Shown piece after piece: positions 18,175-21,792 of a stretch of DNA of 21,792 bases (the first letter of the stretch is position 1; every line of letters begins with the position of its first letter). Position numbers and translations under genes: made by a program. The DNA is taken from the IMG/VR virus record IMGVR_UViG_2718217715_000004. One strand, written 5' to 3'. The stretch comes from a virus. Lineage: Duplodnaviria; Heunggongvirae; Uroviricota; Caudoviricetes. The notes under the pieces are model-generated. The model was not told where the DNA came from. It saw nothing but the letters and a program-made list of their open reading frames with translations, and searched no databases.

Positions 18175-18453
18175 TTAATCTGCTTTCTGAATTTCAGCTT
18201 CTGAATCCATACAAATAATTTCGATATAGGGTTCATCGCCATTAACCTGACGAGCCTTTTCAGCTTCGCTAATGATTTCTCGTACGGTCTGGTACGGAAG
18301 CTCCACAGTCAGGCGCGTACCGTTCAGATAAACGTAAGTAGCTGCGTTTTTTTCGGATGGAACAATTCCGTCAATGGCTGATGCGCGTAATAACAGTTCA
18401 CCGCGAAAATCAATAAAACGGATAAATACACCTTGTGCATGCTCTTTGGTCAT
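18175..18453 (-). CDS. Hypothetical protein (about 92 aa; start taken at the internal ATG with SD AGGTG)
   Basis: The ORF track start at 18513 would overlap the upstream gene by 50 nt; ATG 18451-18453 has a proper SD and leaves a 10-nt gap. Confidence 0.45.
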   Translation of the reverse strand: MTKEHAQGVFIRFIDFRGELLLRASAIDGIVPSEKNAATYVYLNGTRLTVELPYQTVREIISEAEKARQVNGDEPYIEIICMDSEAEIQKAD

Positions 18454-18463
18454 AAAGCACCTG

Positions 18464-18814
18464 TTATAAATCAGCCTGTTTAATAAAACTTTGCCCGCGA
18501 AGCAGACGATCAACCGTGCGAAGTGCTTCGTATAATGTGAAATCCTGCCCGAAGTGATTGTCGCCGCAGTTCAATGCAAAAATGCGGTTCCCGGTAAACG
18601 GATTGCGTGGGCATTTGTGGACCACGATTCCAGCTTTCTCAATCAGCCAGGCATGTTCGCCGATTTGTTTTACAGCGTGGCCATCCGGTGTTGCATGCGT
18701 CTCGTTCAGGTTATAGCGACTGTTACTACGTGATGCACTGGTAGCGACGTGGTGTACATGGCGTTCTACGCCATTACGAAATTTGGAGTATGGATTATTA
18801 GCGTTTTTTTTCAT
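18464..18814 (-). CDS. Hypothetical His/Cys-containing protein (116 aa)
   Basis: ORF; HVHHV...H...CPRNPFTGN...CGDNHF could be a metal-binding motif; unassigned. Confidence 0.5.
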   Translation of the reverse strand: MKKNANNPYSKFRNGVERHVHHVATSASRSNSRYNLNETHATPDGHAVKQIGEHAWLIEKAGIVVHKCPRNPFTGNRIFALNCGDNHFGQDFTLYEALRTVDRLLRGQSFIKQADL

Positions 18815-18835: not shown

Positions 18836-19039
18836 TTAGCTGTTAGCCAAAGCGTCTTTTAACATCGCCACAAGGTTTACTTCAGGCTTTTCCATTTTGG
18901 CGCGTTTGGGGCGGATAATAATTCGACCGTCAGCCAACATCTTTTTGCATGTATTAAGAGGGATACCTGTTATCTCTGCATATTTCTGCAGGGATACATA
19001 GGGGGCATTCACATTGATATTGATGGTTATACCTGACAT
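18836..19039 (-). CDS. Cox/Apl-like small HTH protein (putative excisionase / early-promoter regulator)
   Basis: 67 aa; NAPYVSLQKYAEITGIPLNTCKKMLADGRIIIR resembles the P2 Cox region AIPYQEFAKLIGKSTGAVRRMIDKGKLPVI as remembered. Confidence 0.5.
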   Translation of the reverse strand: MSGITININVNAPYVSLQKYAEITGIPLNTCKKMLADGRIIIRPKRAKMEKPEVNLVAMLKDALANS

Positions 19040-19055
19040 CCCACTAGCCTCCTGA

Positions 19056-19262
19056 TCAGGAAGATTTGTTTTGTTCTTTCTGGGTTAGCTCTAGGCCGCG
19101 AAGGGAGATCATGCGCGCCATGTTAGAGGATGAGCGTTGTTCTTTAGCTGCCATTTCATCAATGACGGCTCGCTCCTCGAGGGACAGCCGAAGTGCCAGT
19201 CTTGGACCTGTGGCGGTGTTACGCGGAATGCGTGATCTGGTATCGTGAAGAACTTGTTTCAT
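19056..19262 (-). CDS. Ribbon-helix-helix (CopG/Arc-like) DNA-binding protein
   Basis: 68 aa; RLALRLSLEERAVIDEMAAKEQRSSSNMARMISLRG fits the RHH beta-strand/helix-turn-helix pattern; weak SD, so start or reality is uncertain. Confidence 0.4.
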   Translation of the reverse strand: MKQVLHDTRSRIPRNTATGPRLALRLSLEERAVIDEMAAKEQRSSSNMARMISLRGLELTQKEQNKSS

Positions 19263-19304
19263 AGTGGTATATTGTGATCATCTAATAGCTCGTGAAATCA
19301 TTTT

Positions 19305-19322
19305 GGTATCAAAAAAGATACC
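19305..19322. promoter_or_regulatory. Candidate operator: perfect inverted repeat GGTATC-N6-GATACC in the divergent-promoter region
   Basis: Read directly; an extra GGTAT half-site at 19266-19270; lies between the RHH/Cox early genes and the XRE repressor gene. Confidence 0.3.
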
Positions 19323-19337
19323 TGTCAAGGTTTTTGT

Positions 19338-19742
19338 ATGAAAAATGATATTGGTCGGCGGTTGCGTGAGGAAAGGGAAAGATTGGGACTTAGTCAAGTT
19401 GCCATGAGCGACATTGGTGGAGTCAAAAAGCTAACTCAGCTTAGATATGAGAAAGGAGATAGCTTTCCTGATGCTGCGTATTTGGCAGCGCTGTCTCGTT
19501 TTGGCCTTGATGTTCAGTATGTTGTGTTGGGAATTCACTCACCTGAAACTTATAACGATGATGAGCAGGAATTGATTACTCGCTTTCGAGCAGCTTCGTT
19601 AGATGTGAAAAACGCGGTGATTGGGGCTTTAAAAGGTGCGATCAGTGAAAAGGAAACTCAGCCATCAGGACGTGAGTTAAATATTTCTGGTGGTAATAAC
19701 CGTATCGCTGGTCGTGACTATAACGAAACTAAGGGTAGGTGA
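19338..19742 (+). CDS. XRE-family HTH protein, probable immunity repressor (P2 C / 186 CI analogue)
   Basis: 134 aa; RLREERERLGLSQVAMSDIGGVKKLTQLRYEKGDSFPDAAYLAAL is a classic Cro/C1-type HTH; divergent from the early operon and on the same strand as int. Confidence 0.7.
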   Translation: MKNDIGRRLREERERLGLSQVAMSDIGGVKKLTQLRYEKGDSFPDAAYLAALSRFGLDVQYVVLGIHSPETYNDDEQELITRFRAASLDVKNAVIGALKGAISEKETQPSGRELNISGGNNRIAGRDYNETKGR

Positions 19743-19757
19743 TAGTAGGGAGGTGAC

Positions 19758-20408
19758 ATGGCCGTCAACTCAAACGGTTCAAACAATCGCGTTGCTGGGC
19801 GTGATTTTCACGAAAAGAATATTCAGATAGAGCGATATGATGGTTCTCATACCGTCAATATCGCAATCCCTTCGAATAATGATGATGACGATCGCCCTTT
19901 GCTTAAGGCTCAGCGTAAGGAGCTAAATAGCTTGGTTGCTGCTATTGCAGAAGCTAGCAATACTGAAGCGTTTATTATTTGGCAAAAAGTACATGCGGAG
20001 ATTGGTGTAGCTGGTATTGATGATATGACAGTAAATCAATATAAAACAGCGGAGAGTTTTCTGCATGCAATGCTTGAGCGATGTAAAGATCATGATGCCT
20101 GTAAGGCTCTTGTAAGTTTATTACTACGTAACAGTGAAGACTGTGGACTTCGACAAAAACTTCTGCGGTATTGCCATATCAATTTCGGTACAGGACGTTT
20201 AAACGATCTTACTCGTTCTCAGTTACAGTCTGCATTGTCGTGGTTAGAGCAACAATCGGCATCAAGCCACATAGAGAGTTCGACCTTACCAGAAGTCCGA
20301 CTTCGTGCTTCAGAATTAATCCGACTTTATCCAAAAGAAATAATATTCTTTATCTGCGTAGGGGTTTTGGTAGGCGGTGTCATTTCTAGGGCGTTTTTTA
20401 ATTTGTAA
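19758..20408 (+). CDS. Hypothetical 216-aa protein with a C-terminal transmembrane anchor, in the lysogeny operon
   Basis: Strong SD GGGAGG; C-terminal hydrophobic helix IIFFICVGVLVGGVISRAFF; N-terminus shares a motif with the repressor C-terminus; AT-rich. Confidence 0.6.
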   Translation: MAVNSNGSNNRVAGRDFHEKNIQIERYDGSHTVNIAIPSNNDDDDRPLLKAQRKELNSLVAAIAEASNTEAFIIWQKVHAEIGVAGIDDMTVNQYKTAESFLHAMLERCKDHDACKALVSLLLRNSEDCGLRQKLLRYCHINFGTGRLNDLTRSQLQSALSWLEQQSASSHIESSTLPEVRLRASELIRLYPKEIIFFICVGVLVGGVISRAFFNL

Positions 20409-20437
20409 TCTTACTTGAGCTAAATTGAGGTAATGAT

Positions 20438-20785
20438 ATGAAAGTAAAAAAGGTTCAACTATTAGTTACTTTTTTATCTATGTTTTCTTTTTCCGCCGTC
20501 GCAATGCCTTTTAAAACTATTGAACGTGAGAGTTTCAATGGGGTATGGCCATTTAATACTGATGAGGTTCAATTACAGTGTCTTGATGGTAATCCTTATG
20601 TGATGAATTTTGACGATAATAAGTTATATGCACTTACAGGTTTGGCTCGAATAAAAGGTAAAACATTTGGTGCGTTACCGTTAGATAACAATAATCCATT
20701 TTGGCTAGATAATGATGCCGCCCCAGGGTTAAAAAAGAGTCTGGGGGATGTCACTAAGGCTGCATTTGATTTATGTGATAAGTAA
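20438..20785 (+). CDS. Secreted/periplasmic 115-aa protein, possibly YebY/DUF2511-like
   Basis: Signal peptide MKVKKVQLLVTFLSMFSFSAVA; two Cys (near WPFNTDEVQLQC and C-terminal DLC); similarity to YebY (WAFN.EEV.L.C..GN) is from memory only; SD GAGGT. Confidence 0.55.
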   Translation: MKVKKVQLLVTFLSMFSFSAVAMPFKTIERESFNGVWPFNTDEVQLQCLDGNPYVMNFDDNKLYALTGLARIKGKTFGALPLDNNNPFWLDNDAAPGLKKSLGDVTKAAFDLCDK

Positions 20786-20790
20786 CTAAA

Positions 20791-21792
20791 ATGTCGGTTC
20801 GTAAGATTCCATCAGGTAAATGGCTTTGTGAATGTTATCCCTACGGGGCATCGGGAAAACGCATTCGTAAACAGTTTGCGACAAAAAGTGAGGCGCTCTC
20901 TTATGAGCGCCGTTTAATGAATAGTAGAGTTGGAGACGAGTTTCAAGATGGTTCTGGTCCTCGTCTTTCTGAGTTGATTGCTCGTTGGTTTGAGATGTAC
21001 GGTAAAACCTTGTCCTCTGGTGCAGAGCGCAAAGTCAAACTTGAGGCGATTTGTTCCAGGCTGGGAGATCCATTTGCTTCTCAGTTTGACAAAAATATGT
21101 TTGCTACTTATCGGGAAAGAAGGCTATCAGGAGAATGGAATCCCAAGGGGAAGAAAAAACTTAGTGAAGCAACCGTTAATCGCGAGCAGTCATATCTACA
21201 TGCTGTTTTTGCCGAACTGAAGCGCCTTGGGGAGTGGTCTGGTGAAAACCCCCTGACTGGTATTCGCAAGTTTCGTGAGGAAGAAAAGGAACTGGCGTTT
21301 CTGTATGTAGATGAGATTGAACGCCTTCTGATTGCGTGTGATGAGTCACGGAATAAAGATTTGGGGGTTGTTGTCCGTATTGGGCTTGCGACTGGTGCTC
21401 GGTGGAGTGAAGCAGAAGGATTAAAGCAATCTCAAGTACTGCCCGGTCGAATCACATTTGTTAAAACTAAAGGAAAGAAGAACCGCACTGTACCGATTTC
21501 ACCTCAATTGCAAGCTATGCTTCCTAAAAAACGAGGAGCGCTATTTTCACCATGTTATGAGGCTTTTGACGCTGCAATTAAGAGAGCGAAGATCGAGCTT
21601 CCTGATGGGCAATTAACTCATGTGCTACGTCACACGTTTGCCAGTCATTTTATGATGCGGGGTGGAAATATTCTTGTGTTGCAAAAAATACTGGGGCATA
21701 GCGATATAAAAATGACTATGCGTTATGCGCATTTTGCTCCAGGTCATTTAGAGGCTGCTGTTGAATTGAACCCTTTTGACAATAGAGGGTAA
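20791..21792 (+). CDS. int: P2-type tyrosine integrase
   Basis: 333 aa; GKRIRKQF, LSEL, TGARWSEAEGL, TFVKTKGKKNRTVPIS, LTHVLRHTFASHFMMRGGNILVLQKILGHSDIKMTMRYAHFAP match P2 Int blocks as remembered; stop at the last base of the window. Confidence 0.9.
   Translation: MSVRKIPSGKWLCECYPYGASGKRIRKQFATKSEALSYERRLMNSRVGDEFQDGSGPRLSELIARWFEMYGKTLSSGAERKVKLEAICSRLGDPFASQFDKNMFATYRERRLSGEWNPKGKKKLSEATVNREQSYLHAVFAELKRLGEWSGENPLTGIRKFREEEKELAFLYVDEIERLLIACDESRNKDLGVVVRIGLATGARWSEAEGLKQSQVLPGRITFVKTKGKKNRTVPISPQLQAMLPKKRGALFSPCYEAFDAAIKRAKIELPDGQLTHVLRHTFASHFMMRGGNILVLQKILGHSDIKMTMRYAHFAPGHLEAAVELNPFDNRG

Follow-up and report, generated by a model that had tools for sequence, protein, structure and literature searches.

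Matched terminal peptides may couple prophage immunity repressors to exchangeable cargo proteins encoded downstream

The SinR/SinI and SlrR/SlrA pairs of Bacillus subtilis each comprise an XRE repressor and the product of an adjacent gene, which share a terminal association segment and form heteromers that control the repressor. The segments of SinR and SinI are helical hooks, and SinI is a small soluble antagonist. Post-translational control of phage repressors by capture or aggregation, and not by cleavage, is known from RstC/RstR (CTX-phi RS1) and Qtip/cI (VP882); RstC and Qtip are not known to have a motif in common with their repressors, and they are produced upon induction instead of being encoded in the repressor operon. 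Amyloid signalling pairs have been described in fungi (NWD2/HET-S) and in bacteria, where BASS1-10 occur in NLR/Bell gene pairs (bioRxiv 10.1101/2020.01.06.895854; 10.1101/2024.11.07.622273). BASS motifs are about 25 residues long, have an excess of G, N, Q, V and I and few K, P and L, and are found in collinear close genes, with pseudo-repeats in one partner (bioRxiv 10.1101/2020.01.06.895854). BASS11 (Bab/Agp, from an E. coli prophage defence island) is reported on TIR, CHAT, EAD7 (effector-associated domain), NACHT and NB-ARC proteins (10.1101/2024.11.07.622273). Effector-associated domains (EADs) are small non-catalytic terminal modules of a core protein and of exchangeable operon effectors, for which homotypic recruitment has been proposed (eLife 2021, PMC8195603). 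Here, we analyze a 21,792-nucleotide stretch of viral DNA (IMG/VR record IMGVR_UViG_2718217715_000004, hereafter the window), in which a putative immunity-repressor gene (positions 19338-19742, plus strand) is followed by the gene of a membrane protein (19758-20408, plus strand), referred to as the partner or cargo. The C-terminal tail of the repressor and the N-terminus of the partner carry the same short peptide, and sequence comparisons lead us to lean towards the view that the two ends are matched terminal docking tags, which would couple the repressor directly to its cargo.

The 134-residue repressor ends in ...LNISGGNNRIAGRDYNETKGR, and the 216-residue partner starts with MAVNSNGSNNRVAGRDFHEK. 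Comparison of the two proteins by BLASTP returned a single significant segment, in which residues 114-130 of the repressor (LNISGGNNRIAGRDYNE; 19677-19727, plus strand) match residues 3-19 of the partner (VNSNGSNNRVAGRDFHE; 19764-19814, plus strand) with 10 of 17 positions identical and 15 of 17 positive (E 3e-5 for the pair). This confirms a motif that an earlier note on this DNA had placed across the gene boundary at 19680-19814; the count of about 14 shared residues given there was slightly generous, as 10 are identical and five more are conservatively replaced. The divergence of the DNA beneath the shared peptide, also noticed then, is equally evident, with 59% nucleotide identity over 51 nt and the same codon at only four of the 10 identical residues. 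No third copy of the motif was found in any frame of the 21.8-kb window. Compared with the rest of the proteins, the tags are enriched in G (2.3x), N (3.7x), V (1.6x), I (1.6x) and Q (1.3x), and depleted of L (0.2x), P (0.27x) and K (0.36x).

Comparison of tails delimits a basic C-terminal cap in the repressor, TKGR (19728-19739, plus strand), which the partner lacks. Nearly every tailed repressor closes with a basic cluster of this kind (NENKK, NKKNK, RRRKTK, GGKKK, GRKRKR or KASKKPSR, and NKK, KKNK or GKKKK in further relatives), and the cap could conceivably provide aggregation 'gatekeeper' residues or a protease signal. The two open reading frames (ORFs) lie in one frame and are separated by TGA TAG TAG plus 9 nt; the 15-nt spacer itself, TAG TAG GGA GGT GAC (19743-19757, plus strand), contains a GGGAGG Shine-Dalgarno sequence. 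Most P2-like relatives have a single stop codon and a 9-nt spacer, the in-frame spacers of P2-like loci being 9 or 15 nt long, whereas the distance varies between -4 and +35 nt in the Mu-like loci with Flk_N partners and is about 60-80 nt in loci L179 and L181-L183. Production of a fusion protein by stop-codon read-through was considered and rejected: with three consecutive stops in the window it is not at issue, and the frame relation is not kept in Mu-like loci. Recombination between the motif copies would yield an in-frame fusion of the helix-turn-helix (HTH), tag, Flk_N domain and transmembrane segment, and no such natural fusion was seen.

The partner matches phrog_5825 over its full length (E 8.5e-103) and is a C-tail-anchored inner-membrane protein with a helical domain of the Flk_N type. 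Precomputed annotations of its homologues include Flk_N (PF27202), and residues 37-166 match positions 20-149 of the 339-position NCBIfam profile of Flk, PRK10715 (E 8e-16), with a score of 58.2 bits that lies far below the curated equivalog cut-off of 353 bits. Models of single chains were computed with AlphaFold2 (AF2) from alignments of 67 sequences for the repressor and 116 for the partner. In the partner, residues ~45-172 (19890-20273, plus strand) fold into a five-helix bundle with a predicted local distance difference test (pLDDT) score of 86-96. The hydrophobic segment IIFFICVGVLVGGVISRAFF (residues ~192-216; 20331-20405, plus strand), modeled as a helix over residues 192-215, constitutes a C-terminal transmembrane anchor, so that the window protein has the combination of Flk_N domain and C-terminal anchor found in PF27202 proteins. 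The partner has no N-terminal signal peptide, and the topology that follows would have its remainder, tag included, facing the cytoplasm. The repressor model comprises the HTH and two helices up to residue 106 at pLDDT 82-96. By contrast with these folded parts, residues 107-134 of the repressor have a pLDDT below 50 and residues 1-40 of the partner one of 44-54 (44-49 for the tag itself, which lies outside the region of Flk homology), and no helix is formed in repressor residues 107-134 or partner residues 1-17. Because of this low pLDDT outside the folded domains, both tags are predicted to be flexible, disordered cytoplasmic termini.

The peptide is conserved in both protein families. All 120 listed partner homologues start with MxVNSxGxxNRx[AS]GRD[FY]xE, and the tails of about 60 homologues of the repressor from enterobacteria (Escherichia, Klebsiella, Salmonella, Yersinia, Serratia, Erwinia, Dickeya, Pectobacterium and Hafnia) read ..NVSGxGNR[VI]AGRD[YF][NH]ExKK. 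Across 40 distinct tails and 71 distinct N-termini, a G, an R, the A-G-R-D, an aromatic residue and an E are invariant at matching positions. The pair recurs across many unrelated temperate phages of Proteobacteria, far more broadly than the view from a single window had suggested. Of 134 loci, 131 have a repressor-like ORF whose end lies between -100 and +60 nt from the start of the partner, and the other three are cut off by a contig end or degraded. The loci come from Enterobacterales, Orbaceae and Pseudomonas, in prophages of both the P2-like and the Mu-like kind, and from marine metagenomes. A tag profile derived from both motifs of the window retrieved, out of 1.84 billion representative proteins, 17 at E <= 1e-3, which are repressor tails, partner N-termini and a few others (one tag-bearing zinc-ribbon membrane protein, two eukaryotic immunoglobulin-repeat proteins and, weakly and repeatedly, the large repeat protein P0302). 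The profile finds essentially only these families, and the objection that the motif is a low-complexity segment common to unrelated proteins thus fails. The immunoglobulin-type repeats contain CEANNIAGRDFHEIKLNV, nine times in P0294 (2754 residues) and three times in P0304 (1493 residues), as a chance match. We would place the AGRD of this repeat at a beta-hairpin turn, from our own reading of immunoglobulin topology, which hints at the conformation of the motif class.

Distant repressor homologues bear other G/N/Q-rich tails. They occur in Mu-like (transposable) prophages and are directly followed by a tail-anchored protein of the Flk_N type, the N-terminus of which resembles the tail of its own repressor and not the E. 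coli motif. The tail and the N-terminus read, respectively, QIFNGDISGQFAGNQIIN and QEFNGTAQGQFSSRDIIN in Pectobacterium, ..GQIAGGNIY and ..EQIAGRDIY in Gilliamella, QQFNGPVGTVTSGDVVN and QQFHDRVHQVAAGDIKN in Pseudomonas, QTFHGAVGQSVAGNVTNKAGVTFNFGD and QDFHGDVGQAAAGDINNYGININLAD at locus L112, FHGDVGQVVNAD and FDGPVGQAIQAD at L142, QIIHGNNHGLVVDA and QHICGDNLGNVVNA at L138 (Orbaceae), and ISVGGDMGG..GGNV and IDVQGDLG..GGAI at L141 (marine). The aligned motif cores measure 15-29 residues across lineages. For seven lineages the cognate scores sum to 334 against a permutation mean of 218 +/- 31, a value reached by three of 5040 permutations; for 14 lineages the sum is 644 against 373 +/- 46 (z 5.9), and none of 200,000 permutations reached it. 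Since cognate pairs are more alike than non-cognate ones, independent drift after one old duplication is excluded.

Further loci illustrate how the two proteins vary around the motif. At L111/L115 and L112-L114, Flk_N partners that are 73% identical in the domain stand behind different repressors (171 vs 138 residues, with cores 38% identical), and both tails still match the partner N-terminus, in what looks like an immunity-type exchange with the tag kept. The matched partner of L141, a marine TARA Mu-like contig (positions 2918-3268), is a protein of 116 residues with no transmembrane segment and no Pfam match; membrane anchoring is, therefore, not universal in partners. In all P2-like partners the tag is followed by the segment IQIxx[FY]DG[RS]HT[IV]NIAIPS, a second conserved stretch in the homologue alignment (residues 21-38 in the window, NIQIERYDGSHTVNIAIPS; 19818-19871, plus strand; pLDDT 51-54). 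In the multiple alignment, this segment falls where Mu-like partners have their tag (F[SA][SA]RDIINIHxP), and P2-like partners may carry a newer tag ahead of a degenerate older repeat.

The nature of the downstream protein was further analyzed with a scan that was blind to the partner. It was seeded with a tail-less repressor homologue and yielded 23 distinct repressor/downstream pairs, for each of which a z-score of the match between tail and N-terminus was computed against composition-preserving shuffles. The termini match at a z of at least 3.8 in 11 of the 23 pairs, and z is at most 2.4 in the other 12, 11 of which have repressors without this kind of tail (tail-less or differently tailed); the twelfth, L151, is an exception in that its repressor is tailed. 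At L139, the sole unmatched locus inspected for genes, the repressor is followed by a zinc-ribbon-like protein and a membrane protein with a coiled coil, and not by Flk_N. Matched and unmatched pairs could not be told apart (Fisher p 0.56) by a cruder rule that called a tail whenever G, N and Q made up at least 30% of the final 30 residues. The rule suffers from dilution of the composition by the basic cap and from the presence of related motif classes in its 99th-percentile null, and the shuffle z-scores were used instead.

Matched partners other than Flk_N proteins include a zinc-ribbon membrane protein of 118 residues at L169 (FTVSGDNNRVAGRDY vs FNVGGNNNRVAGRDY) and other small membrane proteins at L179 and L163. 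The repressors of L181, L182 and L183 are 92-97% identical to each other and share the tail TSFENTSIGQQISGDVDLR. The three cargos have only their first ~40 residues in common (QTVFEGAVIGQVFTGDV; 55-88% identical), with an identity of at most 4% beyond, and comprise a membrane protein of 123 residues, a CAP12/Pycsar-type TIR protein (PF10137, E 4.6e-26) and a PIN_8 protein (PF18476, E 3.6e-44); the cargo of L182 matches PADLOC PycTIR and PDC-S35. Because near-identical repressors precede three unrelated cargos with a common N-terminus, the tag goes with the repressor, and the domain behind it, typical abortive-infection effectors included, is swappable. The label 'cargo', already applied to the downstream gene of the window, is apt for a tagged module of this kind. 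In Zestomonas (L136), the repressor has two copies of the tail with a Pro/Gly-rich linker in between, and a zinc-ribbon membrane protein and a Flk_N protein are encoded downstream, both of which start with the motif.

Small zinc-ribbon proteins, mostly with transmembrane helices, recur in or beside the repressor/partner operon of unrelated phages. Their genes lie at 2526-2984 in L136, 3668-4243 in L142, 1850-2203 (minus strand) in L143, 3652-4023 in L137 and 2402-2758 in L169. The zinc-ribbon proteins of L136 and L169, as well as P0310, are tagged; those of L142, L143 and L137 are not obviously so.

A different explanation of the matched ends is a signal shared for the sake of a third factor, for example a degron or targeting sequence recognized by FtsH, ClpXP or an anti-repressor, by which the two proteins would be co-degraded or co-localized without contact. 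We regard it as fairly unlikely. Terminal, disordered and conserved peptides are typical of degrons, the repressor tails also close with a basic cluster, and the control of the Mu repressor by ClpXP through its C-terminus is a precedent. However, no third gene is conserved beside the pair, as the downstream genes differ in every lineage, and a degenerate receptor would not need the two partners to match. The coexistence of motif classes within host genera argues against a host factor: phages of Pseudomonas carry the QQF..GD and NRxAGRDY classes, those of Pectobacterium/Dickeya the NRxAGRDY and QxFNG..GQF classes, and the same class is found in very different hosts and phage types.

Mimicry is another reading that we consider unlikely. 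Following the logic of SinI/SinR, the repressor tail would dock on a folded surface, either on the repressor core, in oligomerization, or on the helical domain of the partner, and the copy in the partner would compete for it. The folded domains speak against such a site. In Mu-like phages of Pseudomonas/Halopseudomonas (L135, L137), both proteins carry the enterobacterial NRxAGRDY class (SVEGDNNRTAGRDYHE and DVDGSKNRVAGRDYIE), whereas their Flk_N domains share 48-49% identity with the domain of L005 (Pseudomonas, QQF..GD class) and only 20-22% with that of E. coli. The consensus columns in which the L135 type agrees with the QQF..GD Pseudomonas class and differs from E. coli number 36 in the whole protein and ~30 in the domain; a single in-domain column shows the opposite pattern, agreement with E. 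coli against the QQF..GD Pseudomonas class. This comparison makes a class-specific receptor pocket in the Flk_N domain unlikely. On the repressor side, the E. coli core is 56-67% identical to cores associated with other classes and only 35-40% to cores of its own class. Motif class thus tracks neither folded domain, which renders a class-specific pocket on either improbable, and the simplest reading of the sequences is that the tags recognize each other.

That the match is an evolutionary leftover, namely a boundary duplication or recombination junction without function that occasional gene conversion has kept similar, we hold to be very improbable. The copies lie 10-40 nt apart in the same orientation in most loci, and one recombination block could move both. 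By contrast, the synonymous sites show the divergence expected from codon usage. Nucleotide identity between the aligned stretches that encode the motif ranges from 45 to 67% in 15 lineages, and 70 of 142 identical residues have the same codon in both copies, where the codon usage of these genes predicts 61.3 +/- 5.6 (z 1.6). None of the 15 lineages displays the raised DNA identity of recent gene conversion or duplication, and a recent event of either kind was rejected on these codon statistics. The invariant positions are shared by more than 100 distinct sequences, and drift after one old duplication cannot favor cognate over non-cognate similarity. In the P2-like Ralstonia phage YO077_2, the Flk_N-like gene and the repressor gene are convergent, with the motif-coding ends ~860 bp apart, and the tail QVINGGSNNVQIGSV matches the N-terminus QSITDGNGNVQIGKV with a score of 42, compared with at most 30 for all non-cognate combinations (0 of 5000 shuffles). 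Adjacency is therefore not required, and the tag is likewise kept through cargo replacement. The conservation of both copies and the codon sharing bear out the proposal of the earlier note that selection acts on the peptide and that no recent duplication is involved. The scar of a recombination that inserted the cargo into the repressor gene, its other suggestion, does not suit a pair that is ancient and widespread, is kept when convergent and non-adjacent, and retains its tag when the cargo is exchanged. Chance similarity of two low-complexity G/N-rich ends can practically be dismissed, for although the segments are short and compositionally biased and the profile also matches an unrelated eukaryotic immunoglobulin-repeat strand, the pairwise E is 3e-5, matches of this kind are seen in more than 14 lineages, no composition-preserving shuffle scores as high as the real sequences in most matched pairs, and at E <= 1e-3 the motif is found almost only in these families among the 1.84 billion representatives.

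An interaction tag shared by the repressor and the membrane protein, as had also been proposed from the window, fits the evidence best, because the motif co-varies between the partners independently of both folded domains. The repressor would bear its tag on a flexible C-terminal tail, and the cytoplasm-facing Flk_N membrane protein would bear the same tag on its flexible N-terminus. The tags would bind directly, like with like and strand to strand, and might stack in a cross-beta or amyloid-like manner. The coupling would allow the state or amount of one protein to control the other. In one direction, the cargo could act on the repressor at the membrane, by tethering, sequestering or inactivating it; in the other, the repressor could hold or restrain the cargo, or its oligomerization could template and activate it. 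The physical interaction, its motif-to-motif character as opposed to binding in a pocket, the cross-beta nature, the direction and the outcome are all features that we infer. The TIR and PIN domains among the cargos suggest cell killing as the output in some phages, which would suit abortive infection, an addiction module or a guard that protects the repressor from loss or hijacking.

By analogy with amyloid signalling, a self-templating, prion-like repressor tail may tentatively be envisaged, which would pass the state of the repressor to the tagged neighboring effector (membrane protein, TIR NADase-type or PIN nuclease), with the repressor as the sensor; or else the membrane protein would inactivate the repressor by aggregation. 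We consider this more specific proposal doubtful. If it holds, the repressor has a second role as the sensor in a module for guarding, abortive infection or addiction; alternatively, the tagged membrane protein flips the repressor to an inactive aggregate and constitutes an SOS-independent induction switch.

Several observations weigh against direct docking of the tags or against particular forms of it. L151 is a tailed pair whose match does not rise above its own shuffles. The Mu-like lineages of the QxFxGxVGQ type (L005, L109, L112, L111) cross-score nearly at the cognate level, and the enterobacterial class shows no fine residue matching; Y/F and N/H vary freely between its partners, and any specificity therefore resides at the class level only. 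As the motif-coding stretches are adjacent in most loci, joint class switches could partly result from the transfer of a single block of DNA. The low-confidence coil that AF2 predicts for both tags is equally expected of an ordinary linear motif. The tags match no known amyloid-motif family of Pfam; with eight tails and N-termini as queries and a threshold of E <= 10, the only match was to NACHT_sigma, on one Pseudomonas tail, with an E of 0.07 and 13.7 bits against a cut-off of 27.6 bits. Finally, the role of a simple inducible anti-repressor does not fit, because a single operon supplies both proteins.

The window is part of a P2-like prophage and is 97.9% identical to Escherichia phage 520873 (genus Xuanwuvirus) across positions 19000-21000. 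Of 5426 complete E. coli genomes, 520 contain the 1071-bp segment with the repressor and partner genes, O157:H7 strains among these, where the genes are annotated only as 'transcriptional regulator' and 'hypothetical protein'; the partner is a hypothetical protein in RefSeq as well. The first gene codes for an XRE-type HTH protein (HTH_31/HTH_3, phrog_8 transcriptional regulator), and its counterpart in phage 520873 is annotated as 'transcriptional regulator'. It occupies the slot of P2 C and 186 cI, divergent from an Arc-like gene (19056-19262, minus strand) and a Cox-like gene (18836-19039, minus strand), both recognized by phrog_3431/phrog_575 matches and the annotation of phage 520873, and it lies upstream of the integrase gene (int) and is co-oriented with it. 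This is the gene order of P2/186-type repressors, in which the HTH gene is divergent from a cox/apl-type early operon and co-oriented with int. From this synteny, and because the Arc-like and Cox-like genes form the divergent arm of the lysis/lysogeny switch, we infer that 19338-19742 encodes the immunity repressor. In Mu-like loci, the repressor gene is positioned in the equivalent slot, opposite the transposase operon. A promoter-like site is found on the minus strand at 19328-19300, and no terminator-like site was seen between the repressor gene and int across the four rightward genes.

The third of these genes encodes a DUF2511 secreted protein (20438-20785, plus strand; PF10709, E 2.3e-6), and the fourth, at the end of the immunity operon, the integrase (20791-21792, the window end; plus strand), an ORF identified from the integrase annotation in phage 520873. 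The DUF2511 gene belongs to the same operon and is outside the conserved pair, being absent from Mu-like loci and confined to P2-like versions of the operon. Its product has a signal-peptide-like N-terminus and, with its gene placed between those of the partner and the integrase, is likely a lysogenic-conversion protein. In the record of phage 520873 (L001, NC_049344.1; 3743-4783) the partner and DUF2511 genes are unannotated and the integrase is split into two coding sequences; the partner is matched there in three tblastn pieces only, and the deposited sequence probably contains frameshifts. On the minus strand of the window, the calls for a DUF4761 ORF (18464-18814) and a phrog_3800 ORF (18175-18513) overlap by 50 nt. 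Their counterparts in phage 520873 are annotated as much shorter (162 and 279 nt), and the true start codons are probably internal.

Searches with the window proteins against Pfam, NCBIfam, PHROGs and PADLOC named domains and no function for the pair. PADLOC gave no match for the partner or the DUF2511 protein, and only weak, HTH-level RmrA matches for the repressor. Sequence searches of the PDB gave nothing useful, and Foldseek against viral models returned no significant match. In the curated phage genomes, tblastn with the window partner found only phage 520873 (fragmented and unannotated) and, distantly, Ralstonia phages, and tblastn with the Pseudomonas partner found no match.

If the tags bind, the lysogeny switch in many prophages of the P2-like and Mu-like kinds has an overlooked second output at the protein level, with the repressor physically wired to exchangeable cargos, some of which are classic cell-killing defence domains. 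This would bear on how phages that are not SOS-inducible sense when to induce, on how prophages are protected against curing or repressor hijacking, and on how defence effectors stay silent. Signalling through matched, possibly amyloid, motifs would then extend from NLR-type immune receptors to transcription factors.

A comparison with described systems places the pair between several of them. The partner shares with Flk, the flagellar regulator of Salmonella and E. coli (PRK10715), the Flk_N helical domain and the C-terminal membrane anchor, but it is shorter (216 vs ~333 residues), is encoded by a prophage beside a repressor, and carries its N-terminal tag outside the Flk homology. The post-translational control of a repressor by capture or aggregation proposed here resembles that in RstC/RstR and Qtip/cI. 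As in the EAD principle, a homotypic adaptor logic is proposed to recruit exchangeable effectors; EADs are, however, folded, mostly alpha-helical, Death-like modules on NTPase/STAND cores, whereas the tags are unstructured peptides of 15-29 residues and the core is a repressor. The likeness to SinR/SinI lies in an XRE repressor whose terminal segment is duplicated in the product of the adjacent gene. In place of helical hooks, the tags are predicted to be non-helical coil, and their G/N/V/I-rich composition suggests strand rather than helix; the partners, unlike SinI, are membrane or effector-domain proteins.

The amyloid signalling pairs are similar in further respects. In both, one motif stands at the C-terminus of one product and at the N-terminus of the product of a close, usually collinear neighbor. 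The motifs fall into lineage-specific classes that match within a pair, pseudo-repeats occur (L136), and prophages are among the carriers. The tags, at 15-29 residues compared with about 25, correspond in length and in their G/N/Q/V/I-rich, K/P/L-poor composition, and they are attached in a modular manner to effector domains that include TIR, PIN and membrane proteins. The Ralstonia pair has only N-V-Q-I-G of the G-phi-Q-phi-G core common to the RHIM, PP and BASS3 amyloid motifs. By contrast with amyloid signalling pairs, the tail is borne by a small XRE repressor and not by an NLR, STAND or TPR sensor, even in the TIR and PIN loci, and the cargo of the window is a Flk_N tail-anchored protein without known killing activity. 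In the literature, no paper was found on a motif common to a phage repressor and the product of the downstream gene, or on a repressor/Flk_N motif. Matched terminal motifs that link the products of neighboring genes are already known; what the pairs described here add is a prophage master repressor as one of the two partners.

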